Shown here in pieces: positions 12,408-42,981 of a stretch of DNA of 64,000 nt. How positions within the stretch are numbered: position 1 is the stretch's first letter; every line of letters begins with the position of its first letter. The notes beneath the pieces are model-generated. The model saw only the letters and a program-made list of their open reading frames with translations. It was not told the origin of the DNA and made no database searches. A program made the position numbers and the translations under genes. The stretch is from NCBI RefSeq assembly GCF_988243305.1, contig NZ_OZ547136.1; one strand, 5' to 3'.

Positions 12408-12426
12408 TACATCCTCTGTATTAAAG

Positions 12427-12453: not shown

Positions 12454-12465
12454 CGGGAGAAGAAT

Positions 12466-12849
<384 letters not shown>

Positions 12850-12850
12850 G

Positions 12851-13230
<380 letters not shown>

Positions 13231-13324
13231 GTTTCTGAACAACTCACCTTGCTGAGCAGAAAAATGCGATTTAACCAAAAAGCCTGCTGTACACTTAAGA
13301 AACAAGAAGGTGTAAGGAGGCGTT

Positions 13325-13858
13325 ATGAAAACGCGTATTCATGTTGTGCAGGGTGATATTACCAAACTGGCCGTTGATGTGATTGTGAATGCGGCTAATC
13401 CGTCATTAATGGGAGGCGGCGGCGTCGATGGGGCCATTCATCGCGCAGCGGGTCCGGCGCTGCTGGATGCCTGTTTAAAAGTCAGGCAACAGCAGGGCGA
13501 TTGCCCTACGGGGCATGCCGTTATTACGCTTGCAGGCGATCTTCCCGCGAAAGCCGTAGTGCACACCGTCGGGCCAGTCTGGCGTGGTGGTGAACAAAAC
13601 GAAGACCAGCTTTTGCAGGATGCCTATCTCAATAGCCTACGACTGGTGGCGGCAAACAGCTATACGTCAGTGGCTTTTCCTGCAATTAGTACTGGGGTTT
13701 ATGGTTACCCTCGTGCGGCAGCGGCTGAAATCGCAGTAAAAACCGTTTCAGAATTTATTACCCGTCACGCTTTACCCGAACAGGTATACTTTGTCTGTTA
13801 TGATGAAGAAAACACCCACCTCTACGAAAGACTCCTTACCCAACAAGGAGATGAATGA
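13325..13858 (+). CDS. ymdB: O-acetyl-ADP-ribose deacetylase (macro domain) YmdB
   Basis: 177 aa; macro-domain motifs NAAN...GGGGV. Confidence 0.93.
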
Positions 13859-15281
13859 TTTGCCCCGGCTGGCGAGCGCGGTGCTGCCACTGTGTTCGCA
13901 ACATCCCGGTCAGTGTGGCCTTTTCCCTCTGGAGAAAAGTCTGGATGCGTTTGCCGCCCGGTATCGTCTGGCCGAAATGGCAGAGCATACGCTGGATGTT
14001 CAGTATTACATCTGGCAGGACGATATGTCGGGTCGGTTACTGTTTTCCGCCCTGTTAGCCGCAGCAAAGCGTGGCGTTCGCGTCCGTTTGTTGCTGGACG
14101 ACAACAATACACCCGGACTTGACGACATTTTACGCTTGCTTGACAGTCATCCCCGCATTGAAGTCCGGCTTTTTAATCCTTTCTCGTTTCGCTTGCTACG
14201 TCCGCTTGGTTATATCACCGACTTTTCCCGTCTCAATCGCCGTATGCACAATAAAAGTTTCACTGTTGATGGCGTGGTGACGCTGGTAGGGGGGCGAAAT
14301 ATTGGTGATGCCTATTTTGGTGCAGGGGAAGAGCCACTTTTTTCGGATTTAGATGTCATGGCAATAGGACCAGTTGTAGAGGACGTTGCCGATGATTTCG
14401 CCCGCTACTGGTATTGCAAATCGGTTTCACCCCTACAGCAGGTGCTGGATGTCCCGGAAGGTGAAATGGCGGATCGCATCGAGTTACCCGCCTCCTGGCA
14501 CAACGATGCCATGACGCATCGTTATTTACGCAAAATGGAATCCAGCCCGTTTATAAATCATCTGGTTGATGGAACGTTGCCGCTTATCTGGGCGAAAACA
14601 CGTTTATTAAGTGATGATCCGGCGAAAGGGGAAGGCAAGGCAAAACGGCATTCACTGTTACCGCAGCGCCTGTTCGATATCATGGGCTCACCCAGTGAAC
14701 GCATCGATATTATCTCTTCCTATTTTGTACCGACACGCGCAGGTGTGGCGCAACTCTTACGGATGGTGAGAAAAGGGGTAAAGATTGCGATCCTAACCAA
14801 TTCTCTTGCCGCTAACGATGTTGCTGTCGTCCATGCCGGATACGCGCGCTGGCGCAAAAAATTGCTCCGCTACGGCGTGGAATTATATGAACTCAAGCCG
14901 ACGCGTGAACAAAGTAGTACGTTACACGATCGCGGCATAACCGGTAATTCCGGTGCCAGCCTGCATGCTAAAACCTTTAGCATCGATGGTAAAACGGTGT
15001 TTATCGGCTCTTTCAATTTCGATCCGCGTTCGACATTGCTCAATACTGAAATGGGGTTCGTGATAGAGAGCGAAACGCTGGCACAGTTAATTGATAAACG
15101 CTTTATTCAGAGCCAGTATGATGCGGCCTGGCAGCTCCGTCTGGACAGGTGGGGACGGATCAACTGGGTTGATCGTCATGCAAAGAAAGAAATTGTTCTC
15201 AAAAAAGAACCCGCCACCAGTTTCTGGAAGCGGGTTATGGTCAGACTGGCATCGATATTGCCCGTGGAATGGTTATTGTAA
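13851..15281 (+). CDS. clsC: Cardiolipin synthase C (phospholipase D family)
   Basis: Start overlaps ymdB stop by 8 nt; two HxK(x)4D-type motifs ([16 protein letters not shown]). Confidence 0.9.
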
Positions 15282-15288
15282 ACGCGGC

Positions 15289-16446
15289 TTAACGGGCTGG
15301 TGCTTTATCGTTCTCACGCTTAACAACCGGTTTACCAGAGAACAAAAACTTCAGTAACGGGATGCGTAAATGAATTTCATACAGAATTATCGCAATCCCT
15401 ACTACGAATATCAGGCCACAGAGAAAACCAAGCCAGTTGGAGGTGATGTGCGGTGTAATGTATGCGCCGAAAAACAGCGTTAACGGATGGTGAACCAGAT
15501 AGATAAACAGCGATGCGTTAACAAAATAAGTCACCCGCGCTGACTGGAAGTTAAGCAAACGGTGGCCAAAGGAGAAGACCACATTCACCATCCACAGACC
15601 GAGGACCATGGTGATCACCGACTCGGTTTCGTACATCCAGGCATCGCCACTGCCATAGCGCTGGTTGAGTAAGTAAGCGACAAATGCCAATGCTGCTGCG
15701 AGGGTACAGCCACGAGACGGCGTGGTAAACAAGGCTTTAAGATGAGGGAAAATGAAAGCCAGTGCGCCGAGGATAAAAAACGGCAAATAAAATAGCGTTT
15801 GCATGACAATAAAATTGAACATGCCGTTACTCAGAATGGGCGGATACACAATAAAAATCGTTCTTCTTATTACCGCATAGCTGATGCCGAGGCACAAAAA
15901 AATCACCGATAGTTTTACCATCGAGAATTTTTTATTCGTTTTATCAGAATTTTCTAAATTATTTCTGATGCGCTTGAATATCCAGACGCACAGCGTCGTC
16001 ATGACCACTAACACCAATAAAAACCACAGGTGCGATATTAATTCCCAGGCCAACGTATTATATTTGTCATACAATGACAGTCCAGGCCAACTTTCCGCTT
16101 TCCCTTTGACGTATTGCAGCATAATAAATTGCGGCAATGTCAGTAGGGGGATGGCTGTTAACATCGGGATCCCTACACGTTCGACACGTACTTTCCACCA
16201 TTTTTTCAAGGGATAGCGTAAAAAAAGCATGTAGGAAAAGTACCCGGATATAACGAAAAATACCTGCATGCGGAACGAGTGGATGAAGTCATTAAAAAGG
16301 GTCAGCCATAATGACGGTTCGGCGCTATTCACATGCCATGTATGGCTCGAATAGATTAAAGAAATATGAAAAGGGATCCCTAACAACATCAGCCAGGCGC
16401 GGATGGAGTCGAGGAAATATTCACGTTGCGCGGGTACTGGATTCAT
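15289..16446 (-). CDS. opgC: OPG succinyltransferase OpgC (acyltransferase-3 family membrane protein)
   Basis: 385-aa polytopic membrane ORF. Confidence 0.92.
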
Positions 16447-16728
16447 ATATGGTTAACTAATCTCGGATTTTTCGTCTTATCCCTGTCGGGTTATGCCTTT
16501 AGGCTTGTTGCCATAGCGACACCGACCTGACCGCGCCAGGCGCAGGCTTCAAGGTTTTTATGCATAGCATCATCGCTACCACTAACCAGAATGGAAGCGT
16601 CTGTAAGACGGTTGATAAATAAATTTGCTGGCAAACCCTACACGAAGTCGATGCTTCTGTCTTTAGGAGAAGCACGGAAAGTGAAAACGGTTGCAATCAG
16701 GTGCTTAATCCATGAGCCAGCGTGCTGA

Positions 16729-20911
<4,183 letters not shown>

Positions 20912-20919
20912 AAACGTAG

Positions 20920-21015
20920 TTGCCTGATGCGCTACGCTTATCAGGCCTACATCGCTCCTGCAATGTGTTGATTTTGCAAGATTTTGTAGGTCGGATAAGG
21001 CGTTCACGCCACATC
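20920..21015. repeat. REP/BIME palindromic elements
   Basis: GCCTGATGCGCTACGCTTATCAGGCCTAC and GTAGGTCGGATAAGGCGTTCACGCC REP-like units downstream of opgH. Confidence 0.8.
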
Positions 21016-21039
21016 TGGCAAAAACAACGAGCCAATAAA

Positions 21040-21068
21040 AATACCGGCGTTATGCCGGTATTTTTTTA
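21040..21068 (+). terminator. Rho-independent terminator
   Basis: Hairpin TACCGGCGTTATGCCGGTA followed by T7. Confidence 0.7.
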
Positions 21069-21083
21069 CGGAAGAGGTATCAA

Positions 21084-21311
21084 ATGCGTTTAATTGTGGT
21101 GAGCATCATGGTGACCTTGCTGAGTGGCTGTGGCAGCATCATTAGCCGCACTATACCGGGGCAGGGGCATGGCAACCAATATTATCCCGGTGTGCAATGG
21201 GATGTGCGTGACTCCGCCTGGCGTTATGTCACAATCCTTGATCTGCCATTCTCCCTGGTTTTTGATACTTTACTGCTGCCGATCGACATTCATCATGGCC
21301 CGTATGAGTAA
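21084..21311 (+). CDS. yceK: Lipoprotein YceK
   Basis: 75 aa; lipobox LLSGC. Confidence 0.88.
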   Translation: MRLIVVSIMVTLLSGCGSIISRTIPGQGHGNQYYPGVQWDVRDSAWRYVTILDLPFSLVFDTLLLPIDIHHGPYE

Positions 21312-21686
21312 TTAACGTTCATCCCACTCATCAGCTGCTGCGCGTCCTTCCTCGGTATCCAGCGGTGGCTCAAGCTGAAATTCCCCCTCGCCCCATTCAT
21401 GTAATGTATTCTCTTCCTGCCACTCCTGGCGGATCTCTATCTCATCATAGTCGCCATCAAAGACACTTTGCGCGGCTTCACCGCTAAGCATAGGTAAACA
21501 TTCACCTTCTTCCCCTTCGTCGGCAAAAAACTCAACTTGCCACATGATGTCGCCGTCCTGCAAAACGTATTTTTGGGCATTGAACTGTTGCACATTCGCA
21601 TCTTCGGCGTCGATGCCGGGGTTGTCTGCAAGAAATTCTTCGCGTGCAGCGTCAATGGCTTCTTCAAGCGTTGCGTACATGGTCAT
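21312..21686 (-). CDS. msyB: Acidic protein MsyB
   Basis: 124-aa highly acidic ORF (MTMYATLEEAIDAAREEF...). Confidence 0.9.
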   Translation of the reverse strand: MTMYATLEEAIDAAREEFLADNPGIDAEDANVQQFNAQKYVLQDGDIMWQVEFFADEGEEGECLPMLSGEAAQSVFDGDYDEIEIRQEWQEENTLHEWGEGEFQLEPPLDTEEGRAAADEWDER

Positions 21687-21768
21687 CACGATTCTCCCTT
21701 TGAGTTGATGAGGTTTCAGGGAAAAGGATAGCTGATTCTCCGCTTTTACAAGTATGAAAGGCGAAAAA

Positions 21769-22995
21769 TCAGTTCGATACCTGGGGTATTCGACGACGAC
21801 GTAGACTGTTCCATGAATAGACTGCGTTGAATAACACTACGCCAGCGGTGACGAGAAATACCGCTCTGAAACCGTAGTTCGCTGAAATCGCGGCTCCCAT
21901 CAATGGTCCGGTAACGTTTCCAATATCACGAAACGACTGGTTATAGCTGAAGATACGCCCGGCGATTTGGTTGCTCGAGTTGTAAACCAACAGTGTCTGT
22001 ACGGCGGGGAGTAGTGCACCATCGGCGGCACCGAGCAAAAAACGTAAAATCCCAAGTTGTAATGGCGTCTGAACGTAAGACATTGGGATCAACAGCAGTA
22101 CAGAAAAGATCAGCGCCGTAATCAGGATCTTTTCGGGTCCGATTCGATCGCCAAGTTTGCCGAGTCGTGGTGCACTTAGCAGAGCCGCCACGCCTGGCAC
22201 CGAGGCGATCATGCCACTGATAAAGGCGACGTTACTGACGTTACCCGCCAGTTCGCGGACATACAGCGTCAGAATGGGGGCAATTGAGCCCGTTGCCACC
22301 TGGATGATTAACGTAGTGACAAACAGGCTGAGTACCAGTTTCGGGTTTTTAAGTGATGTCACCACTTCACGCATGTGCAGCATCTCTTTTTTGCTGACCG
22401 GCTGGAATTTTTCTCTGATGCAAAACAGGGTGACGAAAAAGCAGAGTATGAGCACACTGGCGGTAATAAAGAATACCGGACGTAAGCCGTAGCTATCGGC
22501 GAGCAGGCCGCCAGCCATTGGGCCGAGCAACGCACCACTAACGCCGCCTGTGGAGAGCGTACCCAGCGCCCAGCCGCTTTTATTACGCGGTACTTGTGTG
22601 GCGATAAGAGCATTAGCGTTGGGGACAAATCCGCCAAGTAACCCAAGAAGCGCCCGTAGGATCAAAAACTGCCAGATATTTTGTGCCAGCCCCATCAACA
22701 CCATCACGATGCCCATGCCGAGGGCAGAGCGTAATAGCATGAGTTTGCGGCCTTTACGGTCGGCGAGTCCACCCCAAAACGGTGAGGCGATGGCAGAAAA
22801 TAAAAATGTAATGCTGAAGACAATACCGGACCACATATTCAAGGCGGAGTGGCCCGTAACGCCAAGCTGCTCAACGTAGAGGGGTAAGAAGGGCATTACC
22901 AGGCTGAAGGCGGCACCCGTAAGAAAACAGCCTAGCCAGGCGACGATCAGGTTTCGTTTCCAGTTTATAGGGGTGTCATTTTCACAGGGTGACAT
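21769..22995 (-). CDS. mdtG: MFS multidrug efflux transporter MdtG
   Basis: 408-aa 12-TM MFS ORF. Confidence 0.93.
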
Positions 22996-23166
22996 AGCAA
23001 TCCGCTGTTGGTGCGCCAGGCGCGGTGAACATAAGAAGAAAAGATAAGCACACTAATTATGCGCCCGACTTCCAGGGGGCGCAATCCAGAGAGCTTTTAT
23101 CGCTAAATCAGGGGGATTTGCTGTGGTAATGCCGGATACCCTTCTGAAGCATCCGGCATGGGAGAT

Positions 23167-24087
23167 TTAATAGCGTGAAGGAACGCCTTCCGGGCGTGTT
23201 TTAAAGCGACGGTGTAACCACATATACTGCTCTGGTGCCATCATGATGCATTTTTCGACCACTTTGTTCATCCACGCGGCGGTGGTTTCGGCATCATCCA
23301 GCGGCGGAGAACACTCTGGCGGCAGCATAATCAACTGATACCCTTTGCCATCTGGCTTACGGCGTGGAACGAAGGGCACCAGACATGCGCCGGACATCCG
23401 TGCCAGCATCCAGGTTCCGGTCGTGGTCGCAGCCTGCTCAACGGCAAACAACGGGACGAAAACGCTTGAGCGCGGGCCGTAATCATGATCCGGTGCGTAC
23501 CAGACCACTTCGCCTTTTTTCAGGGCTTTAATCATGCCTTTTAAATCTTTGCGGTCGAGCATCGATTTATTTGAGCGCAAACGGCCCCAGGTTTGTAGCC
23601 AGTCAATCAGTGGATTATCGTTCGGGCGGTAAACGCCAATCCCCGGTTCCTGCATACCAAACTGCCGCGCACCAAGCTCCAGTGTCAGAAAATGGATGCC
23701 AACTAACAGGATGCCGCGTTTTTGCGCCTGCACGTCACGAATGTGTTCCATGCCGATCACTTCCGTCCAGCGGGCGATTCTGCGGTCCGGCCAGAACCAC
23801 GCCATGCCAGTTTCCATCAGTCCCATGCCAACGGATTCGAAATTCTTCACCACCATTTTACGGCGTTCTTGTTCGCTCATTTCCGGGAAGCACAGTTCCA
23901 GGTTGCGATGCACAATTTTTGCGCGTCGTTTCATAAAACGTAACGCCAGTTTTCCTAATCCACAACCGAGGCGGTAGATAACCGGGTAGGGCAATTGCAC
24001 GACTAACCAAAGTACGCCAATACCCAACCAGGTTAACCAATAACGCGGATGAAGCAGTGCGGTGGAGAACTTGGGTAGATTCGTCAT
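23167..24087 (-). CDS. lpxL: Lipid A lauroyl acyltransferase LpxL (HtrB)
   Basis: 306 aa from [17 protein letters not shown]. Confidence 0.93.
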
Positions 24088-24311
24088 ATCAATCCTGTTT
24101 TTCAACCTATACGGGCAATTGTATGTATTGTCGCATTTTTTCGCCCGCAACCAAAATTTGTGGCTGAAGACTGGGCGAAATTGCCGCGCTTGTAAATAAC
24201 AAATAATTTTTAATGCGCAAATGTAGCGTAAAATGTGTGGATGTTAATTATCGATAATTGCTATATCATGCCGCGGATTTTTACTTTCCCATCTCGCAGG
24301 AACCGTACACC

Positions 24312-25364
24312 ATGCCAGTGTTACACAACCGCATTTCCAACGACGCGTTAAAAGCCAAAATGTTGGCTGAGAGCGAACCGCGAACCACCATTTCGTTTTA
24401 TAAGTATTTCCACATCGCCGATCCTAAGGCGACCCGTGACGCTTTATATCAGCTGTTTACCGCGCTGAATGTTTTTGGGCGAGTGTATCTGGCGCATGAG
24501 GGTGTTAACGCGCAAATCAGCGTACCTGCGAGCAATGTTGAAACATTTCGCGCACAGCTCTATGCCTTCGACCCGGCTTTAGAGGGCTTACGCCTGAATA
24601 TCGCGTTGGATGATGACGGGAAATCCTTCTGGGTTCTGCGCATGAAGGTACGCGATCGCATTGTTGCCGACGGTATTGACGATCCTCACTTTGATGCCAG
24701 CAATGTGGGTGAGTATCTGCAAGCGGCGGAAGTGAACGCCATGCTTGACGATCCCGATGCATTGTTTATCGACATGCGTAACCACTATGAGTATGAAGTG
24801 GGGCACTTTGAAAACGCGCTGGAAATTCCGGCAGATACCTTCCGTGAGCAGCTGCCAAAAGCAGTCGAGATGATGCAGGCACATAAAGATAAAAAAATCG
24901 TTATGTACTGCACCGGTGGCATTCGTTGTGAAAAGGCCAGTGCCTGGATGAAACATAACGGATTCAATAAAGTCTGGCATATCGAGGGCGGAATTATTGA
25001 ATACGCCCGCAAGGCGCGCGAGCAGGGTTTACCGGTACGTTTTATTGGCAAAAATTTTGTTTTTGACGAGCGGATGGGCGAACGTATATCTGATGAGATT
25101 ATCGCGCATTGCCACCAGTGCGGTGCGCCGTGCGACAGCCATACCAACTGTAAAAATGATGGCTGCCACCTGCTGTTTATTCAGTGTCCAGTATGTGCGG
25201 AAAAATACAAAGGTTGTTGTAGTGAGATTTGCTGCGAAGAAAGCGCGTTACCGCCTGAAGAACAGCGACGCCGTCGGGCAGGACGTGAAAATGGCAATAA
25301 GATCTTTAATAAGTCTCGTGGACGTCTGAATACAACACTGGGCATTCCTGATCCAACAGAATAA
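24312..25364 (+). CDS. trhO: Rhodanese-domain tRNA uridine(34) hydroxylase TrhO (YceA)
   Basis: 350 aa from [11 protein letters not shown]; rhodanese active-site CTGGIRCEK. Confidence 0.9.
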
Positions 25365-25405
25365 ATATCATTGCCGGATGCGTGTCATCCGGCAACATTT
25401 CACTC

Positions 25406-25981
25406 TTACTTCTGCTGTACGCCTTCCACTGAAATAATCAGATCCACTTCCTGAGAAGCTGGACCTAAATCTGTTTTGATATTGAAGTCCTTGAGCTTAA
25501 TTTTGCCTTCGGCCTCGAAGCCTGCACGTTTACCACCCCACGGGTCGTCGCCTTGACCAATTAATTTCGCTTCCAGCGTGACGGGTTTGGTTACGCCATT
25601 CAGCGTCAGATCGCCGGTAATATCCAGTTCGTCACCGTCTTTCTTCACGCTGGTGGAGGTGAATGTTGCCTGTGGATATTTTGCGGTATTGAGGAAATCT
25701 GCACTGCGAAGATGTTTATCGCGTTCGGCGTGATTAGTATCGACGCTGGTGGTGTTAATTGTCACATTCACTTTATCGGCAGCTGGATTTTTTTCATCAA
25801 AGGTAAAAGTACCGTCGAAATCTTTAAAGGTGCCATATAACCAGCTATAGCCAAGATGCTGGATGCGGAAGTTAACAAAGGCGTGCTGACCTTCTTTGTC
25901 AATTTTGTAATCGGCGGCAACCGCTGAACCGGCAGAGAACATCAGGGAAGCGAAGGTTAAACCAAGCAGGCTTTTTTTCAT
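25406..25981 (-). CDS. yceI: Periplasmic YceI-family protein
   Basis: 191 aa with signal peptide. Confidence 0.92.
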
Positions 25982-25984
25982 TTT

Positions 25985-26551
25985 TTATACTCCATAGTCA
26001 GATGACGACTTTCCCAGCATGCGCTTCAGAGTGTCGTCTTTATCGATGAAATGATGCTTCAGGGCCATAAATCCATGCATAACGGACAGTACTACGACGC
26101 TCCACGCGAGCCAAAAATGCAGGGCACCGGCAAAGTCAGCCTGTGCGCCAGCGTCGGCGAGGGTCGCGGGGACGTCAAACCAGCCAAAAACGCTGATCGG
26201 TTTACCATCGGCAGTTGAGATCAGATAGCCGCTGATGCCGATGGCGAACAGCAATAAGTACAATGCGAGATGTCCAGCCTTTGCGCCAAGACGAGTCATG
26301 GGCGAATAACTCTGCAGCGGACCCGGCGGTGGAGATATGACGCGCCACAGAACGCGAATAACCAGCCCCATCATTAACAAAATGCCGATGCTTTTATGCA
26401 CTTCGGGTGCTTTGTGATACCAGCCATCGTAATAACTGAGCGTGACCATCCACAGACCTAAAGCAAACATGCCGTAGACAATAATTGCGCTTAGCCAATG
26501 TAAGGCCGCAGATATAACACCATAGCGTTCAGGGGTATTTGTGAATGACAT
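25985..26551 (-). CDS. yceJ: Cytochrome b561 homolog YceJ
   Basis: 188 aa from MSFTNTPERYG; membrane protein. Confidence 0.9.
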   Translation of the reverse strand: MSFTNTPERYGVISAALHWLSAIIVYGMFALGLWMVTLSYYDGWYHKAPEVHKSIGILLMMGLVIRVLWRVISPPPGPLQSYSPMTRLGAKAGHLALYLLLFAIGISGYLISTADGKPISVFGWFDVPATLADAGAQADFAGALHFWLAWSVVVLSVMHGFMALKHHFIDKDDTLKRMLGKSSSDYGV

Positions 26552-26811
26552 AAGTGCATCCAAAACGAATTTGCGAGAGAAAGAAAATGGCGTGTCGGAG
26601 AATGAAATGCAACACAAAAATAACAAATTGAATGATATTTATTTTTATTTCAATAATTTTGAATTAATAATGAAAGAATCTTCATAAGTTTAGTGGATTC
26701 AGCATTTGGAAGGTCTGGTGAGTGCTGTAGAGGCAGGAAGAATCTCATTCAATTTTTCACGCTAAATGAAAGGGAGATTAAATATTTGTCAGTTTATGTC
26801 AGTACAGAAAA

Positions 26812-26952
26812 CTAAAAATAAAACACATAGATCAGATCCATAATTGCCAACAATCCCCAGAGAAAAAGATAAAGCATCAGATGCTCGCGAATATTATTGA
26901 TGAGATAGTGCAACAGCCGACGCATTAAATACTCCTGTAAAAACGGCCTCAT
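26812..26952 (-). CDS. yceO: Small membrane protein YceO (46 aa)
   Basis: Read by hand on minus strand: [46 protein letters not shown]; below the 60-aa cutoff of the ORF track. Confidence 0.8.
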
Positions 26953-26972
26953 TCTGGAGGCCGTAATGATGA

Positions 26973-28091
26973 TTATTGGAAGCGGGAAAGCCTGAATGGC
27001 GTCAAATCAAAATCGCTTTTTTTTTCTTGCGCAAAATCGGCAGCTATTTCCCCTAAAACTGACGCAAATTTAAAACCGTGCCCACTCAGGCCGGTAATGA
27101 GCAGTGTATTATCGTGGCCGGGTAGGGTATCGATAATAAAATCTTCGTCAGGCGAATTATCATAGGTGCAGGCAGCGCCGTACAGGCAGCAACCGATACC
27201 CGGCAATACATTGCGCAAGAACGGGAAGGCTTCCGAACCATCGCTGACCACTTCCGCAAACGGAACACGTTCATCCGCTGAATGGATAACCTGGCCTCCG
27301 TTATGTTTGCCAATCTTCAACGCGTCGTTTTCTGCCGGAAAACCATAATATTGATCGCCATTGGGCAGTTCACCGGTAAACGCCGGGAATTTATTCTTCA
27401 CGCTATAGCGACCATCGGCCTGATACCAGGCAAATACTTTGCGTACGGGCTGGACAGGCAGCTCCGGGAGCAGGTCTTTTACCCATGTTCCCGCGCAGAC
27501 AATCGCTTTTTTCGCCTGATAATCACCGTCAGCCGTTTCAATAGTTACGCCATCATCGTCATGACGAATTGCGGTGACCGGGCAGTTGAACAGCTGCGCA
27601 CAGCCCGCTTCCTTCGCCAGTTGGATCCAGGTTTTAATCGCCAGTTCGCTGCGCAAAAAACCGGAATCAGTCTCAAATAAGCCGATGTAGTTGTCCGGGA
27701 CGCGTATTTCCGGCCAGCGGGTCATAATCCCTTGCGCATCGAGCTTTTCAACGTTGAGTTGCCATTGTTCGGCGCTGTGGGCGACGTTGGCGAGAAATGT
27801 GGAATCAGCCGGGCCAAGGTTAATGACGCCAGAGCGTACAAAAATGGGATCTTCTTCGTTGTGGTGGGAGAGTTCATCCCACAGCGTTTGCGCGCGAAGA
27901 ACCAGCGGGACATACTTTTCGCCTTCACCATAAGCATGGCGAATTAATCGCGTATCGCCGTGGTGGCTGCCGTGTTGATGTGGTGGCATATGGGCGTCGG
28001 TCATAAGCACGTTTAAACCGGCGTGGGTTGCATAATACCCGGCGGCAGCGCCTACGGAACCGCTGCCAATAATGATGAGATCGTATTTCAT
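26973..28091 (-). CDS. solA: N-methyl-L-tryptophan oxidase SolA
   Basis: 372 aa; N-terminal FAD motif IIGSGSVG. Confidence 0.93.
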
Positions 28092-28205
28092 TTTTTTCTC
28101 TCTGCTCTCATGGTTTAAGCAGAGTAATTAACTGAATGCAGATATACAACCCAGAAATGGTAAAGGCACCGGTGAGGTGCCTTTTGGGTGGATGGTCATG
28201 TCATG

Positions 28206-28460
28206 TTAATGACGCCGATACTCGTTTACCGGGAAATCACCGGATTCAATTTTGGCGATTCCTGCTTCTAATATCGAAATAAATTGTCTGGCAACATCAG
28301 TGGTTAACCAGAGCGTCTGACCAACTTCAGTCCCTTCCTGCTCGGACTTATTTGGGGTCTGGTAGTGCAAACGCAACATCAGCGCATCATAGCTATCAAC
28401 GGTGCTGATGTCCCACCCTACGAGCGGATGAGTCTGAATGACTTCATTATTTTTTTCCAT
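28206..28460 (-). CDS. bssS: Biofilm regulator BssS
   Basis: 84 aa from MEKNNEVIQTHPLVGW. Confidence 0.9.
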   Translation of the reverse strand: MEKNNEVIQTHPLVGWDISTVDSYDALMLRLHYQTPNKSEQEGTEVGQTLWLTTDVARQFISILEAGIAKIESGDFPVNEYRRH

Positions 28461-28749
28461 CATGGCCCCCTAATTCGTGTTACTAGACAACGTTATTCGA
28501 GGTTCAATGCGTTTTTATCTGAAGCAACTTCAGTATACCAATAAGTAAGGGTATTCACCGAATTTTTAAAGGGGGGAACAGATAAATTTTTGCTTTTAAG
28601 ATTTATATGAACAATAAAACAGCATGTCATTCATATTTTTTTAGCATATTGTGCAATTATTTTGAGGAAGTGTAGAAATTTTGTACTCGAAATTTGTAAG
28701 TAAAATAAAAAAGCCGGGGCGACCCGGCAAAAACAAAAATCACTGCATA

Positions 28750-28995
28750 TTATTCGCTGACAAACCAGTCATCGGCGCTTTCCCACGTTTCCTGGATAAT
28801 TTCGCTAATGCGCTGTTTATCTTCTTTTGTCGCGCCAATAACCGATAAATTATTCGCTGCGGCATAACGTACCGATACGTGGCCTTCATTATCAGGAAAC
28901 GCATACTGAATACGGCGGGAAAGTTCGCCAGCCAGGGCGTCAATAGCCCCAGCTGGCAATGGAGAAGTTTTCGCTATGGTGACTTCAATTCGCAT
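28750..28995 (-). CDS. dinI: DNA damage-inducible protein DinI
   Basis: 81 aa from MRIEVTIAKTSPLPAG; LexA box immediately upstream. Confidence 0.93.
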   Translation of the reverse strand: MRIEVTIAKTSPLPAGAIDALAGELSRRIQYAFPDNEGHVSVRYAAANNLSVIGATKEDKQRISEIIQETWESADDWFVSE

Positions 28996-29014
28996 AATAG
29001 CCCCCTGTTGAATA

Positions 29015-29034
29015 TACTGGTTATTTATACAGGT
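29015..29034 (-). promoter_or_regulatory. LexA (SOS) box of dinI
   Basis: Minus strand reads ACCTGTATAAATAACCAGTA (CTG-N10-CAG) about 20 nt upstream of the dinI start. Confidence 0.8.
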
Positions 29035-29068
29035 AAAATAACCTAATGACAACAGGAAGCTACGATTT

Positions 29069-30115
29069 TTATTGTTTAACGGACCAGCGTACCGTTTCTC
29101 CGGCGAGGAATGGCACCAGCGTGTCATCAGTCAGTGCGATGCTTTCAGCAACCTGTTGCTCTTCACGTACCAGTTCGATGAATGTGTCGTTGACCGGCAA
29201 GCCATAGAACTGCGGGCCGTTTACAGAACAGAATGCTTCAAAGTGCTGCAGAGCATTCATCTCTTCAAAGACGGTAGCGTAACTGCCCAGCGCGGTTGGG
29301 GCATTGAAGCAGCCCGCGCAGCCGCAGCTACTCTCTTTGCGATGACGTGCATGCGGCGCAGAATCCGTACCGAGGAATACGCGATTAAAACCGCTGGCGA
29401 CTAGTTCACGCAATGCCTGTTGGTGAATATTGCGTTTGAGGATGGGTAGACAATACAGATGTGGACGCACGCCACCAACCAGCATATGGTTGCGGTTAAA
29501 CATCAGATGCTGCGGAGTGATGGTGGCAGCCAGCCGTTCATTTCCGTTACGGACATAGTCGGCAGCATCTTTGGTGGTGATGTGCTCAAAAACGACTTTC
29601 AGCGCAGTCAGGCGCTGGCGCAGCGGTTCCATCACGCTTTCAATAAAGCGCGCTTCACGATCAAAAATGTCGATATCTGCATGTGTCACTTCACCATGCA
29701 CCAGTAACGGCATACCGATTTTTTCCATGCGCTCAAGTACCGGCATGATTGCGTCAACTGACGTCACGCCGTGACTGGAGTTAGTGGTTGCGTTTGCCGG
29801 GTAAAGTTTGGCAGCGGTGAACACGCCTTCGTTAAATCCACGCTCAAGCTCATTAGGGTCTAGTGAATCTGTCAAATAACAGGTCATCAGCGGGGTGAAA
29901 TCGTGCCCGGCAGGTACGGCGTCAAGAATACGCTGGCGATAAGCCACGGCAGCCTCAACGGTGGTCACGGGCGGAGCCAGATTGGGCATTACGATAGCCC
30001 GTCCATAAATTTCGCTGGTATACGGCACGACAGTTTTTAACATGTCGCCATCGCGGAGGTGAAGGTGCCAGTCGTCTGGGCGGCGGATCTTTAATACCTG
30101 GGATGGTGCAGTCAT
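29069..30115 (-). CDS. pyrC: Dihydroorotase PyrC
   Basis: 348 aa; N-terminal [10 protein letters not shown] metal-binding motif. Confidence 0.95.
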
Positions 30116-30220
30116 TAATCTCTATGCTCCGGCTGAAGGGATGTTTTTGCCGGACACAAAGGATAAGCGGAAACGTTTTCCTTTGCACGAAAAATAAAGG
30201 GCGCGAATGCGCCCTCGTGA

Positions 30221-30781
30221 TTAATCAGTAAACGGAATGACAATTTCGCCTGGCTTCACTTCAATGCCTTTCGCCAGTTTCTTCGCCATTGCTTCGCCCT
30301 GGCTGCCATCTTCGCGCAGGACGTAAGCAGGTTGCTGGTTAAAGTAATTGCGTAATGCCTGGTTCAGATAGGGAAGCAACGTTTGCATCACCGTTTGCAT
30401 TTTTTCCGGTTGTACCGTCGCATCGACCACTTCCATCTCTTTCAGGAAGATCGCGCCTTTTTCTTTATCAAACACGGGCAGCGCTTTCAGCTTCAGTTTC
30501 ATGGTCGCTTTCTGGCTACCGAACAGGGAGTTCATGTCCAGATTGGCGTCTCCGGTTAGGGTAACCTTATTCGGCTCTTCGCGACCAATTTGGCTGGTCA
30601 GGTTTGTCAGAACAATATGGGCATCAGCCACGCCGGGTAAACCGATATCTTTTGAGAAATTATTATGTTTCGCAAGCGACTGGTTAATTTCTTGTTCGGT
30701 GATGGTGTATTGGGTGAGTTGATTACAGCCAACGAGCAGGCCACTGACGATCAATGCAGCGGCAAATAAAAACTTGTTCAT
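30221..30781 (-). CDS. yceB: Lipoprotein YceB
   Basis: 186 aa from MNKFLFAAALIVSGLLVGC (lipobox). Confidence 0.88.
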   Translation of the reverse strand: MNKFLFAAALIVSGLLVGCNQLTQYTITEQEINQSLAKHNNFSKDIGLPGVADAHIVLTNLTSQIGREEPNKVTLTGDANLDMNSLFGSQKATMKLKLKALPVFDKEKGAIFLKEMEVVDATVQPEKMQTVMQTLLPYLNQALRNYFNQQPAYVLREDGSQGEAMAKKLAKGIEVKPGEIVIPFTD

Positions 30782-30914
30782 GGTAGTCCTCGACATGAAA
30801 TCTGCGTCAATATCCTGACACAACGCAGCATGTGTCACCAGCGATAAACGCGCCAGCAGAAAAAACTGAAAACGGCGGCAACCCGCGAATACAGGCTGCC
30901 GCGGCGGGTCAGGA

Positions 30915-31562
30915 TTAAATCGCCATTGATGATAACAAATTGATTTGTGTCTGTTTCGCCATATTATCGCGGTAATCAGCAACGCGGCTTGGCCAGTTGA
31001 TTCCGGCTACTAGCGTCAGATTACGCAGGAGCGGAAATAGCTGAATATCATCTTCCGAAAGTTCGCCATTCACGGCGTTCGGTTTGACGATCAGTTTGTC
31101 CAGCGCACGTAAATCATCGCTGATATTCTTAATCAGACCGTCAGAGTGGGCCAGCAGGTCGGCAAAATTACCCGCGCTGGCCTCTTTCTTTTCGACGAAA
31201 TATTTGCGCGCGGCAGGAGTAGAAAACTCATCAAATGCCGATTTGGCAAAACGCGGCAACAGCAGTTTGTTGGCGTAGCCATTGACCTTGCGCAACCACT
31301 CTTCAATGGCAGGGGAACGTTTGCCGGTCAGTAACGGTTTGCCGTCGAGTTTATCGACATAGTGAACGATGTCCATGCTTTCTGGCATATAGCGGCTGTC
31401 ATCTTTTTGCAGAATGGGAACCTGTTTTTGACCGACCATCCGGGTGGGTGTTTCTGCGTCGTCGTTGAGCAGAACATGTAATTCGACGGGGATATTTTTC
31501 AGGCCGAAAATCATGCGGGCTTTGAGGCAGTAAGGGCAGTGATCGTAAATGTATAGCTTCAC
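30915..31562 (-). CDS. grxB: Glutaredoxin 2
   Basis: 215 aa; active site CPYC near N-terminus. Confidence 0.95.
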   Translation of the reverse strand: MKLYIYDHCPYCLKARMIFGLKNIPVELHVLLNDDAETPTRMVGQKQVPILQKDDSRYMPESMDIVHYVDKLDGKPLLTGKRSPAIEEWLRKVNGYANKLLLPRFAKSAFDEFSTPAARKYFVEKKEASAGNFADLLAHSDGLIKNISDDLRALDKLIVKPNAVNGELSEDDIQLFPLLRNLTLVAGINWPSRVADYRDNMAKQTQINLLSSMAI

Positions 31563-31625
31563 GTGACTCCTCCATTTGGCTGTCAGTTCACTTTCAGTAT
31601 GGAGGAGTCAGGGGGGAGTATCAAA

Positions 31626-32834
31626 TCAGGCGTCGCGTTCCAGCAAACGACGCGCGGCGCGTTTCTGGCTAAACTGCCAACCCAGCGCAAGGAAAGTGAA
31701 GATGCCAATAATGCCCAGCATCATCCACGGAAGCTCTGGCTGGTGCGCCGATTTGCCCAGGTCAAACAGCCAGCCGCCACCGATATAACCAATAGCGCCG
31801 CCAATCGCCAGACCCAGACGGCTAAACCCCATATAGCTGCCGCGAGCTCTTGCGTCTGCCAGCGAAGCACTTAAGGTTTCACGCGCAGGCTCGGCAATGA
31901 TCGACCCGATATAAAACAGACAAATTAGGGTGAAAAGTTGTTGCAAGCCGCTGACCATGCCCACTGGCATCATGCTTAATGACATTATCAACAGCCCAGC
32001 CATTAACCGGTGTTCCAGACGAAAATGCTTTTCACTCCAGCGGGCGATAGGGTAGAGCAACGTTAACGACAGACACGCTTCAATGGCATACATCCATTTA
32101 ACGGCAGAGGGCGCGCCCGCCACGTCGTTGACCATAATTGGCAGCATCAGCATCACTTGTACAGCCAGCATGTAGTAACCCGCCAGCGTCAGGACATAGG
32201 TGACAAAACGTTTGTCACGCATCACGCGGGTCATGCCTTCGCGAACGGGCGTGCGTACAGTGGAGAGTTTCCATGCCGGTAACAACCACGCATTGAACGC
32301 TGCACACAGCACAAACAAAACTGCCCCTGTGGCGCAGACCAGGCGAAAGTCGTATTGCAACAGCCAGCTCCCCAACAATGCGCCAATGACCGCACCGGCA
32401 CTGTCCTGCATCATCAACAGCGAGAAAAAACGACCACGCTGTTGTGGACGGATTAGTTTCACCACCAGCGCCGAACGCGGCGGATCAAACAACGTGCCGC
32501 CGAGTCCCGAGAGCAGGCATGAAAACCACAGTAGCCACGGTTCGTGGGCGATACCCATTGTGGCGAATCCGGCGGCACGCATCAGCATACCGGTAACAAT
32601 CATCGGTTTGGCACCAAAGCGGTCGGCAATTGCGCCGCCGAAAATACCCAGACCTTGCTGAATAAACTGGCGTAGACCGAGGGCAATACCGACCATGACG
32701 GCGGCCCAGCCCATTTGATCAACGAAGCGGATAGAGATCAGCGGGAAGACAACAAAGAACCCCAGCACGACCAGCATATTATCGATGAGCAGGAAATATT
32801 TACCCAGGTTCCTGGCCTGCGACACGCGGGACAT
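31626..32834 (-). CDS. mdtH: MFS transporter MdtH
   Basis: 402 aa from [14 protein letters not shown]. Confidence 0.92.
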
Positions 32835-33069
32835 TTCCCCTCCCGGGAAATAAAAGATGAGCACTTTCTATTCTGCATTGCCGCTAAGACTTTTCCCATC
32901 ATTTCGGGGACAATATTTTTTTATCAAAACGTCGCTTTGATAGAGAGTTTTTATCAAATATGTGAATAATGCAGAAAATGGCATTCTGGACTTTTCACAG
33001 GGTCTGGTTGCGCAGGTATAGTAATACTTACAGCGTATTAAAGACGTTACGGGAAGGAGTAGGTATAGA

Positions 33070-34312
<1,243 letters not shown>

Positions 34313-34313
34313 A

Positions 34314-35237
34314 GTGAAAAAATTACGTATCGGCGTAGTGGGGTTAGGCGGCATCGCGCAAAAGGCGTGGTTACCGGTGCTGGCGGCAGCGTCTGACTGG
34401 ACGTTACAAGGTGCGTGGTCGCCTACGCGCGCGAAAGCCTTGCCAATTTGTGACAGCTGGCGCATTCCTTATGCCGATTCGTTATCCAGCCTTGCCGCCA
34501 GTTGCGATGCGGTTTTTGTGCATTCCAGCACCGCCAGCCACTTTGACGTGGTCAGTACGTTACTCAATGCGGGGGTACATGTCTGTGTCGATAAACCGCT
34601 GGCAGAAAATCTGCGCGATGCTGAACGGCTGGTGGAACTTGCGGCACGGAAAAAACTGACGTTGATGGTCGGTTTTAACCGTCGTTTCGCACCACTCTAC
34701 GGTGAGTTAAAAACGCAACTCGCCACCGCAGCCTCGCTAAGAATGGATAAACATCGTAGCAATAGCGTCGGGCCACACGATCTTTATTTCACGTTGCTGG
34801 ATGATTATCTGCATGTGGTGGATACCGCGCTGTGGTTGTCGGGCGGTAAAGCCTCTCTGGATGGCGGTACGCTACTGACTAATGACGCTGGCGAAATGCT
34901 GTTTGCCGAGCACCATTTTTCGGCCGGTCCTTTGCAGATCACCACCTGTATGCATCGCCGTGCCGGAAGCCAGCGTGAAACCGTGCAGGCCGTGACTGAC
35001 GGTGCGCTCATCGACATTACGGATATGCGCGAATGGCGTGAGGAGCGCGGGCAGGGCGTAGTGCATAAACCGATTCCTGGTTGGCAGAGTACGCTTGAGC
35101 AACGTGGATTTGTCGGCTGTGCGCGGCACTTCATTGAATGTGTGCAAAATCAGACAGTTCCGCAAACCGCCGGCGAACAGGCAGTGCTGGCGCAACGTAT
35201 CGTTGACAAGATCTGGCGCGATGCGATGAGTGAATAA
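34314..35237 (+). CDS. mviM: Gfo/Idh/MocA-family oxidoreductase MviM (YceM)
   Basis: GTG start 2 nt after yceH stop; Rossmann motif GVVGLGGIA. Confidence 0.88.
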   Translation: MKKLRIGVVGLGGIAQKAWLPVLAAASDWTLQGAWSPTRAKALPICDSWRIPYADSLSSLAASCDAVFVHSSTASHFDVVSTLLNAGVHVCVDKPLAENLRDAERLVELAARKKLTLMVGFNRRFAPLYGELKTQLATAASLRMDKHRSNSVGPHDLYFTLLDDYLHVVDTALWLSGGKASLDGGTLLTNDAGEMLFAEHHFSAGPLQITTCMHRRAGSQRETVQAVTDGALIDITDMREWREERGQGVVHKPIPGWQSTLEQRGFVGCARHFIECVQNQTVPQTAGEQAVLAQRIVDKIWRDAMSE

Positions 35238-35259
35238 ACCCTGTAACATCTGGCGGTAG

Positions 35260-36882
<1,623 letters not shown>

Positions 36883-36890
36883 CAATGTAT

Positions 36891-36913
36891 TCCGGCCTGC
36901 AGTGCAGGCCGGA
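36891..36913. terminator. Hairpin between convergent murJ and flgN (putative terminator)
   Basis: TCCGGCCTGCAGTGCAGGCCGGA palindrome; no clean T-tract. Confidence 0.5.
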
Positions 36914-36921
36914 GATAATCT

Positions 36922-37338
36922 TCAGATCGAAATCTTTTTACTGCCGCGATGGGTTGTTGAGGTCTGACCGTTCGCTCCATATAGCGTCGGTTCCTGATGC
37001 GGTTTCAACATTTCCAGCGCCTGTTGATTGCGCTCAATCTGTCCTTCCAGTAACCAGCCGTTATGTTGATTCATTTGGCGTAGTTGCTGCGTTTTCACAG
37101 TAATTGCCTGCCAGCGTTGACTAATATCAACGCTATTTGCTGTATTGGGTTCTTTCCTGCGTAATTGTTCGAGGTAATCCAGCGTCGCCAGCAGAGAGCT
37201 TTTTTGTTCTGTAATCCATTGCAACTGGCTGCCGTTGATCTGCCCCATAGAGAGATGTTGCTGCTCTTGATCCATTACCGTTTTGAGATCGTTAAGCACA
37301 GCGGACATCTGGTCGAGGATCTCTGCAAGACGTGTCAT
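36922..37338 (-). CDS. flgN: Flagellar export chaperone FlgN
   Basis: 138-aa ORF. Confidence 0.95.
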   Translation of the reverse strand: MTRLAEILDQMSAVLNDLKTVMDQEQQHLSMGQINGSQLQWITEQKSSLLATLDYLEQLRRKEPNTANSVDISQRWQAITVKTQQLRQMNQHNGWLLEGQIERNQQALEMLKPHQEPTLYGANGQTSTTHRGSKKISI

Positions 37339-37342
37339 ACGA

Positions 37343-37636
37343 TCAGTTACTCTGCAAGTCTTGCTGAGCTTCGTTGATCAGCGCATCGGCAATTTTGCCT
37401 GTGTCCATTTTTAGTTCACCGTTACGAATCGCCAGTTTTAACGCTTCGACACGTTCAAGATTGATATCACTGCTGCCGGGTTGCATCAGTTTTGCTTGCG
37501 CGTCGCTTAACGTCACACTGGTGCTGGTGGAGGCGGTTGTTTTTGCCGCCCGGGTGTTCGTTACCGGCGCGTCAGTGGTTTCGCGCGGTTGAACGGTGCT
37601 TACGGGCTTCAGAGGCGAAGTGCGATCAATACTCAT
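37343..37636 (-). CDS. flgM: Anti-sigma-28 factor FlgM
   Basis: 97-aa ORF. Confidence 0.95.
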
Positions 37637-37679
37637 GGTTTATTCCTCATTGAGGGCGCTTTTATCATGTGTTGCTTAT

Positions 37680-37708
37680 TTATCGGCAAGGGACGGGTAA
37701 TCTTTAAC
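37680..37708 (-). promoter_or_regulatory. Sigma-28 (FliA) class 3 promoter for flgMN
   Basis: Minus strand reads TAAAGATT-N11-GCCGATAA versus consensus TAAAGTTT-N11-GCCGATAA. Confidence 0.75.
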
Positions 37709-37711
37709 AGC

Positions 37712-38371
37712 TTACAGGTTTATAAGAATATTCCCATCTGCATCAACAACGCCGCTGACCACCTGTCCCGATACCATGCGCACCCGCGCATTCTGTGCGA
37801 CGGCAGCATTGTTCAGCGCCTGACCTTCTGCGTTGGCGCTAAACCCATCACCGCTGGCGATCACGTTGACGCGTTGTCCCGCTTTTACCCGCCATGCCTG
37901 GCGAAACTGGGTTAACTGGATAGGTTGATCGGGTGATAGATCGCGCAGGCTAACGGCATCAACAAGTTGATTGATATCCAGCACCGTACGCGGTGGCAAG
38001 GTGTCCAGCCGTCCGCGTTTCAGTTTGACATTGCCAGCTTCCAGCTTTCCTCCCCGCACAATGGGCATTGCGGCAACCACATAATTTCCTGTGGCCTGCA
38101 CATTAACCTGTAAATATCGTTTGTCGTTACCGCAGCGTGCCAACACATTCACATTGCCCCACAGGCGGGAATTATTGCTCATCGAAAGCAATGGCTGCTC
38201 GCACGGCGGTAGTAGATTGGGCGCTGTACGAATAGAAACACGAACCTCATCACTTACCCCCGCGAGCTGGGCGCTAAAAAAGGTGTGCAATTGCGATGTG
38301 AGATTGCTCGCCGCACTTAACGGACTGAACAGTATCGCGATGATCGCCACGCTACGTTTTATTGCCAGCAT
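37712..38371 (-). CDS. flgA: Flagellar P-ring assembly chaperone FlgA
   Basis: 219 aa with signal peptide. Confidence 0.95.
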   Translation of the reverse strand: MLAIKRSVAIIAILFSPLSAASNLTSQLHTFFSAQLAGVSDEVRVSIRTAPNLLPPCEQPLLSMSNNSRLWGNVNVLARCGNDKRYLQVNVQATGNYVVAAMPIVRGGKLEAGNVKLKRGRLDTLPPRTVLDINQLVDAVSLRDLSPDQPIQLTQFRQAWRVKAGQRVNVIASGDGFSANAEGQALNNAAVAQNARVRMVSGQVVSGVVDADGNILINL

Positions 38372-38525
38372 TTTCGCCCCCTGCCATTTCTACAACGTGA
38401 ATTGTACCTGTCCGCAATGACCATCAACGGCATAAATAGCGACCCATTTTGCGTTTATTCCGCCGATAACGCGCGCGTAAAGGCATTTAAGCTGATGGCA
38501 GAATTTTGATACCTGCGGAGGAGAT
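38372..38525. promoter_or_regulatory. flgA-flgB divergent promoter region (class 2, FlhDC-dependent in K-12)
   Basis: 154-bp gap between divergent flgA and flgB starts; binding sites not mapped here. Confidence 0.6.
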
Positions 38526-38942
38526 ATGCTCGATAAGCTCGACGCCGCCTTACGTTTTCAACAAGAGGCGCTCAATCTGCGCGCCCAGCGTCAGGAAGTG
38601 CTGGCAGCAAACATCGCCAATGCCGATACCCCTGGTTATCAGGCGCGCGATATCGATTTTGCCAGTGAACTTAAAAAAGTCATGCAACGTGGACGGGATG
38701 CAACCAGTGTGGTTGCACTGACGATGACCTCAACGCAACACATTCCGGCGCAGGCGCTGACGCCTCCTACCGCAGAACTGCAATACCGTATTCCGGACCA
38801 GCCTTCGCTTGACGGTAATACCGTCGATATGGATCGCGAACGCACCCAGTTTGCCGATAACAGCCTGCAATACCAGATGAGCCTTAGCGCGTTGAGCGGG
38901 CAAATCAAAGGCATGATGAACGTTTTACAGAGCGGAAATTAA
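38526..38942 (+). CDS. flgB: Flagellar proximal rod protein FlgB
   Basis: 138-aa ORF. Confidence 0.95.
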
Positions 38943-38945
38943 CGG

Positions 38946-39350
38946 ATGGCACTGCTGAATATTTTTGATATCGCCGGGTCGGCGTTAACTGCCCAGTCCC
39001 AGCGTCTGAACGTGGCGGCCAGTAATCTGGCGAATGCTGATAGCGTGACCGGTCCCGATGGACAGCCATATCGGGCAAAACAGGTGGTATTCCAGGTTAA
39101 CGCTGCACCAGGTGCTGCGACAGGCGGCGTAAAGGTTGCCGATGTTATAGAAAGTCAGGCCCCGGACAAACTGGTTTATGAACCGGGTAATCCGCTGGCG
39201 GATGCAAAGGGCTACGTGAAAATGCCAAACGTTGATGTCGTCGGAGAGATGGTTAACACCATGTCGGCGTCACGCAGCTATCAGGCCAATGTTGAAGTGC
39301 TCAACACGGTGAAAAGCATGATGCTGAAAACCCTTACGCTCGGTCAATAA
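38946..39350 (+). CDS. flgC: Flagellar proximal rod protein FlgC
   Basis: 134-aa ORF. Confidence 0.95.
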
Positions 39351-39361
39351 AGGAGAAAACT

Positions 39362-40057
39362 ATGTCCATTGCGGTAACCACCACCGATCCGACAAATACC
39401 GGCGTCAGCACCACCAGTAGTAGTTCGCTCACGGGCAGCAACGCCGCAGATTTACAAAGCAGTTTTCTGACTTTGTTGGTGGCGCAGCTGAAAAACCAGG
39501 ACCCGACCAATCCAATGGAAAACAACGAGCTGACGTCGCAATTGGCTCAAATCAGCACGGTCAGCGGGATTGAAAAACTCAATACCACGCTCGGATCTAT
39601 TTCCGGACAGATTGATAACAGCCAGTCGTTACAGGCCAGTAACCTGATCGGTCACGGCGTGATGATCCCCGGCACCACTGTTCTTGCGGGAACCGGCAGT
39701 GAAGAAGGGGCTGTGACCACGACCACGCCGTTTGGTGTTGAGCTGCAACAGGCGGCAGACAAAGTTACGGCCACCATCACCGATAAAAATGGCGCGGTTG
39801 TCCGTACCATTGATATTGGTGAACTGACCGCCGGAGTCCACAGTTTCACCTGGGACGGTACGTTGACTGACGGCACCACTGCGCCGAACGGTTCTTACAA
39901 CGTAGCGATTAGCGCCAGTAACGGTGGTACACAACTGGTTGCCCAGCCGCTGCAGTTTGCTCTGGTGCAGGGTGTGATCCGCGGCAACAACGGTAATACG
40001 CTGGATCTCGGCACTTACGGCACCACCACCCTCGACGAAGTACGGCAGATAATTTAA
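39362..40057 (+). CDS. flgD: Flagellar hook cap protein FlgD
   Basis: 231-aa ORF. Confidence 0.95.
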   Translation: MSIAVTTTDPTNTGVSTTSSSSLTGSNAADLQSSFLTLLVAQLKNQDPTNPMENNELTSQLAQISTVSGIEKLNTTLGSISGQIDNSQSLQASNLIGHGVMIPGTTVLAGTGSEEGAVTTTTPFGVELQQAADKVTATITDKNGAVVRTIDIGELTAGVHSFTWDGTLTDGTTAPNGSYNVAISASNGGTQLVAQPLQFALVQGVIRGNNGNTLDLGTYGTTTLDEVRQII

Positions 40058-40081
40058 GCCTTCACATTTCAGGAGTCAGTC

Positions 40082-41287: not shown

Positions 41288-41306
41288 TCGCTGACGGGAT
41301 AGCTCA

Positions 41307-42180: not shown

Positions 42181-42981
<801 letters not shown>

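Follow-up and report, generated by a model that had tools for sequence, protein, structure and literature searches.

Several small single-pass membrane proteins of Escherichia coli, among them MgrB, MgtS, AcrZ and CydX, modulate larger membrane proteins. YceO is like them in its size of 30–50 aa, its one predicted transmembrane helix, its low abundance and its stress-linked phenotype, and they serve here as a working analogy of mechanism, with neither family membership nor sequence kinship claimed. In K-12 the gene is recorded as b1058, lies between solA and yceJ, and has been classed as encoding an acid-stress small protein (PMC12997748, PMC8765455). Two further described systems bear on the present analysis: the ribosomal protein bL32, encoded by rpmF (b1089; PF01783, TIGR01031), and the Rho-independent terminator.

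The window analyzed here is the whole 64,000-nt stretch of contig NZ_OZ547136.1. An earlier note, made from its letters, placed yceO (46 aa, minus strand) and rpmF (57 aa, plus strand) in it, held that a 60-aa cutoff hides both from the ORF track, and suggested that other small ORFs in intergenic gaps could be hidden in the same way. We find that both genes are present, that yceO quite likely starts downstream of the position given in the K-12 record, and that the segment between the two starts belongs in part to a probable solA terminator.

Results

Two known genes below a 60-aa cutoff

With the cutoff lowered to 20 aa, the ORF listing contains an intact ATG-start ORF of 46 aa on the minus strand (26812..26952) and another of 57 aa on the plus strand (54836..55009). 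A frameshift or internal stop, which the earlier note had named as grounds for giving up either reading, was looked for in both frames, and none was found. Both ORFs are shorter than 60 aa and are therefore omitted from a 60-aa ORF track, as had been claimed. Positions 5065..64000 of the window are collinear with E. coli K-12 MG1655 1097561..1156531 at ∼98.4% identity, and each of the 64 K-12 protein-coding genes contained entirely in the aligned span corresponds to an intact window ORF. Mapping of the K-12 annotation to the window places yceO (b1058, 46 aa) and rpmF (b1089, 57 aa) exactly on the two ORFs, bearing out the coordinates and lengths first read for them; across the span the curated K-12 record has no other protein shorter than 60 aa. 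PGAP annotation of the closest strains contains no further CDS below 60 aa, and annotation of the island at window positions 1..5068 added none. The yceO locus was found in 5424 of 5426 complete E. coli genomes, and the rpmF region was likewise found in 5424 of the 5426, with at least 99% identity in every one of these. Both ORFs represent previously known E. coli genes, yceO and rpmF. Features of the window are collected in Table 1.

Table 1. Coordinates of features in the 64,000-nt window, with the evidence for each.
Feature	Position	Strand	Evidence
yceO conserved CDS, 37 codons plus stop	26812..26925	-	PGAP 'YceO family protein', Pfam, homologues, dN/dS
9-codon N-terminal extension (MRPFLQEYL) of the K-12 46-aa form	26926..26952	-	Outside Pfam profile
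ATG1 (upstream), K-12 1119447	26952..26950	-	
ATG2 (downstream), K-12 1119420	26925..26923	-	
yceO Shine-Dalgarno CAGGAG, 6 nt upstream of ATG2	26932..26937	-	Duplex with 16S 3′ end, -6.9 kcal/mol
Hairpin ACGGCCUC-CAGAAU-GAGGCCGU, then UUUUUA	26938..26964	-	Folding, -14.1 kcal/mol alone
rpmF, 50S ribosomal protein bL32, 57 aa plus stop	54836..55009	+	ORF, Pfam, TIGR01031, PDB, RefSeq annotation
rpmF Shine-Dalgarno GAGGAG, 8 nt before ATG	54822..54827	+	Duplex energy, -8.8 kcal/mol
Unannotated SD-passing ORF, 12 aa	42142..42180	+	RBS-scored scan
Unannotated SD-passing ORF, 13 aa	28507..28548	+	RBS-scored scan
Unannotated SD-passing ORF, 26 aa	26607..26687	+	RBS-scored scan
SD-passing ORF with nested starts, 15 and 13 aa	23123/23129..23170	+	RBS-scored scan
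rne 5′ UTR element	51861..52197	-	Rfam gathering score
SraB sRNA	54058..54226	+	Rfam gathering score
ES056 sRNA, just upstream of csgD	10757..10848	-	Rfam gathering score
PyrC leader	30116..30165	-	Rfam gathering score
ES036/CssrF sRNA	20943..20985	-	Rfam gathering score
FlgO sRNA	48456..48533		K-12 annotation

The RNA features listed in Table 1 (Rfam matches and FlgO) are likewise invisible to an ORF track. Window positions 1..5068 have no K-12 counterpart and adjoin the tRNA-Ser gene serX (5069..5156); they form one end of an island that carries a CP4-type module (DUF932, antirestriction protein, JAB/YeeS-like, DUF987, CbeA/CbtA toxin-antitoxin, DUF5983, DUF957 and DUF4942) and are 100% identical to the uropathogenic strain NU14. 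Elsewhere, the flgF–flgG intergenic segment (42079..42171) is shorter than K-12 1134575..1134701 and does not align to it, and flgE (40082..41287) encodes 401 aa versus 402 aa in K-12.

rpmF encodes bL32

Identification of the plus-strand gene is unambiguous: it encodes bL32, which is a structural protein of the 50S subunit. Its product scores 73.9 bits against Pfam Ribosomal_L32p (PF01783; cutoff 21.3) and 65.2 bits against the TIGR01031 equivalog (cutoff 22.6), and all 57 of its residues align to the 57-residue bL32 chain in 416 PDB entries (E = 3.7e-34). The gene order yceD-rpmF-plsX-fabH, part of the cluster yceD-rpmF-plsX-fabHDG, was confirmed in the window. In identity, length and operon context the gene is the same as the known rpmF, and no difference was found. 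The protein contains no cysteines and so belongs to the zinc-free form of bL32, a division established for the family. Between the stop codon of yceD and the Shine-Dalgarno (SD) sequence of rpmF there is a short GC-rich inverted repeat (TCCCCG ... CGGGGA, 54792..54809).

Other candidate small ORFs occur at chance frequency

The earlier note had proposed a six-frame scan with ribosome-binding-site (RBS) scoring. We scanned all starts giving 10–59 aa with no more than 15% overlap with mapped genes, and scored them by pairing with the 16S 3′ end. The scan recovers rpmF and the 37-aa start of yceO described below; these and five other starts (12–26 aa), two of which share one ORF, are the 7 of 238 start/ORF combinations that pass. 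In the 37 intergenic gaps (6213 nt) the number passing is 5, against 5.1 ± 2.5 expected from 200 shuffles. The total is thus at chance, and the RBS-scored scan has no discriminating power here. Since an ORF with an SD-like site arises at chance frequency, the evidence that yceO and rpmF are genes comes from homology and conservation and not from the ORFs themselves.

It is improbable that the intergenic gaps of the window hide further functional genes below 60 aa. Three unannotated ORFs, and a fourth with nested starts, do pass the SD filter, but their count equals the shuffle expectation and none is annotated in the curated K-12 record or by PGAP. Conservation was assessed for the candidates inside the 4-kb loci. 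The start and frame of the 26-aa ORF are not conserved, and this candidate was rejected: K-12 and the E. marmotae-type genomes have TTG in place of its ATG, E. albertii has a 6-nt deletion, and the ORF is lost in Citrobacter. Around the 13-aa ORF at 28507 the DNA of E. coli and that of E. albertii are 100% identical, but this conservation belongs to a ∼600-nt block that takes in the whole of bssS and does not single out the ORF; because the surrounding block has no substitutions, it is uninformative. The suggestion of additional hidden small ORFs therefore finds no support in the counts or in existing annotation.

The block itself (28060..28660) comprises the bssS CDS (28206..28460, minus strand) and ∼200 nt upstream, and shows 97–100% DNA identity across the window, an E. 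marmotae-type genome (L005) and E. albertii (L006), with bssS synonymous sites essentially unchanged; flanking solA, yceO and dinI show 80–93% identity in the same comparison. This pattern suggests either strong RNA-level constraint or recent interspecies exchange. dinI is present in the window (28750..28995), as in K-12. In ST2747, the strain whose DNA matches the yceO locus best, only 92 bp separate bssS and pyrC and dinI is not annotated (L001:22062-22153). A complete E. marmotae-type genome was sought in the E. coli collection and none was found; every record was 80–90% identical to L005.

yceO is conserved in protein sequence and position

The 46-aa product of yceO matches Pfam DUF2770 (PF10968) with 79.1 bits (cutoff 25; E = 2.4e-22), and positions 1–36 of the 36-position profile cover residues 10–45. 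A word-indexed search of 5.8 billion proteins returned 98 YceO clusters, nearly all named Escherichia or Shigella, and an exhaustive profile HMM search of 1.84 billion representatives returned 59 matches; by cluster name, the distant members come from Klebsiella, Citrobacter, Cedecea, Enterobacter, Dryocola and Edaphovirga. Across 15 diverse YceO sequences from several genera, N11, R13 and W23 do not vary, and N10 and D30 reach at least 90% conservation. The NCBIfam scan with YceO found no family, the PDB sequence search no relative, and a literature search for DUF2770 no paper mentioning the family name. In comparisons of E. coli, E. marmotae-type genomes and E. albertii, dN/dS is 0.08–0.13 and dS 0.45–0.97 (Nei-Gojobori), values that for this small gene rest on low counts, 5–7 non-synonymous versus 8–13 synonymous differences. 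Judged by this pattern of substitution, yceO is a real gene whose protein is under purifying selection within Escherichia.

The gene lies immediately 3′ of solA, on the same strand, in the window, K-12, ST2747, E. marmotae-type genomes, E. albertii, Klebsiella, Citrobacter and Cedecea; Edaphovirga departs from this order, with a GerE regulator gene standing between the two. In E. albertii and Klebsiella, yceO is present but yceJ-yceI are missing there (between yceO and trhO; L006:2115-2326, L011:1600-1614), so the conserved linkage is to solA, and a dependence of yceO on the downstream yceJ-yceI was rejected on the same grounds. The trhO call in Klebsiella overlaps the 3′ end of yceO by 15 nt.

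That yceO is a chance reading frame in a non-coding solA-yceJ spacer is hardly credible. Such ORF-plus-SD combinations occur at chance frequency in the intergenic DNA of the window, and native YceO in the wild type is below detection by mass spectrometry (MS) (PMC12529367), but a dN/dS of ∼0.1 with saturating synonymous change, a family with three invariant residues in several enterobacterial genera, and the kept synteny all speak for a coding function. Moreover, a chromosomal YceO-SPA fusion is visible by immunoblot, at a very low level, and the chromosomal level has been estimated as at least 10,000-fold below that obtained from pBAD with 0.002% arabinose (PMC12529367). The pattern of conservation effectively refutes a chance frame.

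In two metagenome contigs (L009:1660-1773 and L010:944-1057) the yceO allele equals that of E. coli from solA to about codon 18 and then diverges sharply, with many synonymous changes, 73% amino acid identity overall and unrelated DNA downstream. This looks like a recombination breakpoint within the gene.

A hairpin between solA and yceO

Downstream of solA, the minus strand of the window reads solA TAA, 8 nt, ACGGCCTC-CAGAAT-GAGGCCGT, TTTTA, CAGGAG, TATTTA, ATG. The inverted repeat begins 8 nt after the solA stop codon (26973..26975) and forms a hairpin that has an 8-bp stem (6 GC pairs) and a 6-nt loop and is followed by five consecutive U; the hairpin also folds in its sequence context. An equivalent GC-rich hairpin is found in the same place in E. 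marmotae-type genomes, E. albertii, Klebsiella, Citrobacter and Cedecea, with folding energies of -14 to -17 kcal/mol; that of Klebsiella is without a clear U-tract. A GC-rich stem-loop directly followed by a U-tract and lying 3′ of a stop codon is the terminator pattern, and the hairpin is likely to be an intrinsic terminator or attenuator of solA.

We recognized the hairpin by reading and folding the sequence and not with a pattern scanner. A scan of 26500..27300 for promoter and terminator patterns called no terminator and no sigma-70-like minus-strand promoter for yceO; the hairpin was probably missed because the maximal stem takes the first U and leaves only 4 of the 5 required. Published 3′-end mapping supplements (PMC7815308) list an internal solA 3′ end only and none at K-12 11192xx-11194xx, for which low solA expression or incomplete lists may account. 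The yceO-leader hairpin shares the 8-bp GC-rich stem, 6-nt loop and five U with Rho-independent terminators and differs from them in that the SD sequence of a conserved gene follows within 8 nt, making the hairpin part of the yceO leader.

The yceO start codon

The K-12 reference start of yceO disagrees with the NCBI pipeline and Pfam, both of which are already at 37 aa. The K-12 and window genes are the same gene in the same place, with 251 nt around the ORF matching except for 3 bases 3′ of the stop, and the difference between them is one of annotation only (46 aa in K-12 versus 37 aa according to PGAP, Pfam and homologues). Two in-frame starts come into question, designated ATG1 (upstream) and ATG2 (downstream) in Table 1. 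ATG2 equals Met10 of the 46-aa form, the position at which the DUF2770 profile and the homologues begin, and in all RefSeq genomes that we inspected PGAP annotates the 37-aa yceO. In other genera the homologues measure 36–41 aa, mostly 37–38 aa, and align from ATG2. Read from there, the protein fits the DUF2770 pattern (∼36–38 aa; an M-R-R or M-I/Q-R start; NN-[IV]-R; L-W ... D), and the 9-residue extension of the 46-aa reading falls outside the family. Longer YceO entries occur occasionally in databases; they either continue out of solA or have N-terminal additions of unrelated sequence, a common sign of gene-caller artefacts.

Signals for translation initiation point in the same direction. 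Pairing with the 16S 3′ end amounts to -6.9 kcal/mol for ATG2 versus -1.7 kcal/mol for ATG1, which has no SD sequence and covers, in the solA hairpin, the final two bases of the loop and the first of the 3′ arm. The CAGGAG sequence is conserved in E. marmotae-type genomes, E. albertii and Citrobacter. In three E. marmotae-type loci (L005, L007 and L008) one extra T lies between the SD sequence and ATG2; the 37-codon ORF is intact, and ATG1 is out of frame because of the 1-nt insertion. No upstream in-frame ATG or GTG was found in Klebsiella, Citrobacter, Cedecea or Edaphovirga, and TTGs, non-conserved, occur only in Klebsiella and Cedecea. Based on these comparisons, we consider it quite likely that yceO starts 27 nt later than in the 46-aa record, at the ATG at 26925, and encodes 37 aa. 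The earlier reading thus holds for the identity of the gene, which K-12 b1058 and Pfam confirm, and not for its extent, for which Pfam, PGAP and the homologues favor the shorter form. Computed average masses are ∼4719 Da for the 37-mer and ∼5897 Da for the 46-mer, formylation excluded.

It is unlikely that native E. coli YceO is the 46-aa protein starting at 26952, whether alone or beside the 37-aa form. ATG1 is in frame and invariant among the E. coli strains sampled and E. albertii, but terminator arm, U-tract and SD sequence, which these 27 nt make up, account for the invariance equally well. The K-12 reference record starts at ATG1; against this stand the weak pairing of a start codon buried in a -14 kcal/mol hairpin, an extension that four other genera lack and that a frameshift disrupts in E. 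marmotae-type genomes, and the agreement of Pfam and PGAP in leaving it out. A pBAD-borne 46-aa ORF gives protein detectable by MS, including its N-terminal peptide (PMC12529367), a result that is uninformative on the native start because the RBS is that of the vector and the ORF on the plasmid is the 46-aa form. The supplement of Stringer et al. was searched for a yceO start site and has no yceO entry. With translation starting at ATG2, positions 26926..26952 are probably non-coding and would consist of the 3′ arm and U-tract of the solA terminator followed by the SD sequence and spacer, that is, the yceO leader.

Source of yceO mRNA

Between the stem and the SD sequence lie 8 nt, and a single nucleotide separates the latter from the U-tract. 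From this short distance we infer that yceO mRNA must include the hairpin. The arrangement of solA, hairpin, SD sequence and yceO is common to Klebsiella, Citrobacter and Cedecea, where a GC-rich hairpin and a purine-rich SD sequence also precede the gene. With the hairpin in the leader and no sigma-70-like promoter found, read-through from solA is the simplest source of yceO mRNA. Under this model yceO mRNA would arise mainly by read-through of solA transcription past the terminator, and such an origin would keep YceO very scarce and explain its very low protein level. Judging from this layout, we give an even chance to the proposal that solA read-through is the main source and holds YceO at this low level.

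Predicted structure and function of YceO

AlphaFold models the 37-aa YceO as a single continuous helix over residues 2–36 (pLDDT 94.9). The N-terminal 15 residues are basic or polar (3 Arg, 1 Glu and 1 His), and the C-terminal 22 residues (16–37) are hydrophobic, with a mean Kyte-Doolittle hydropathy of +2.05. From these features we infer that YceO is a very small single-helix protein of the DUF2770 family, with a predicted location in the inner membrane. By the positive-inside rule its N-terminus would be cytoplasmic, and the helix would span the inner membrane to the C-terminus. By analogy with other small membrane proteins of E. coli, the most likely role of YceO is to bind a larger membrane protein and modulate it, and the conserved NN-x-R motif, W23 and the intramembrane D30 may form its contact surface.

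Discussion

As the best explanation of the locus as a whole, we regard it as very likely that the window carries the known genes yceO and rpmF, with a YceO that is quite likely 37 aa long, has an even chance of being expressed mainly by read-through and would modulate a membrane protein. The discovery value of the two genes is little, because both are in every reference annotation. Their case does illustrate that a 60-aa ORF cutoff drops real genes, two annotated ones in 64 kb, which can be fully recovered by homology. One refinement emerges: yceO most likely occupies 26812..26925 and encodes 37 aa, with 26926..26952 serving as solA terminator and yceO leader.

If the 37-mer is the native protein, MS assays that rely on the 11-residue N-terminal peptide, as in PMC12529367, would never detect YceO, and expression constructs for the 46-aa form would carry nine non-native residues. 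A stronger version of the proposal, to which we give slightly less than an even chance on the basis of the layout, is that the K-12 start of yceO is wrong and that the 37-mer is made only from transcripts that read through the terminator. yceO would then be a conserved 'terminator-gated' gene, the level of its product being set by the efficiency of the terminator.
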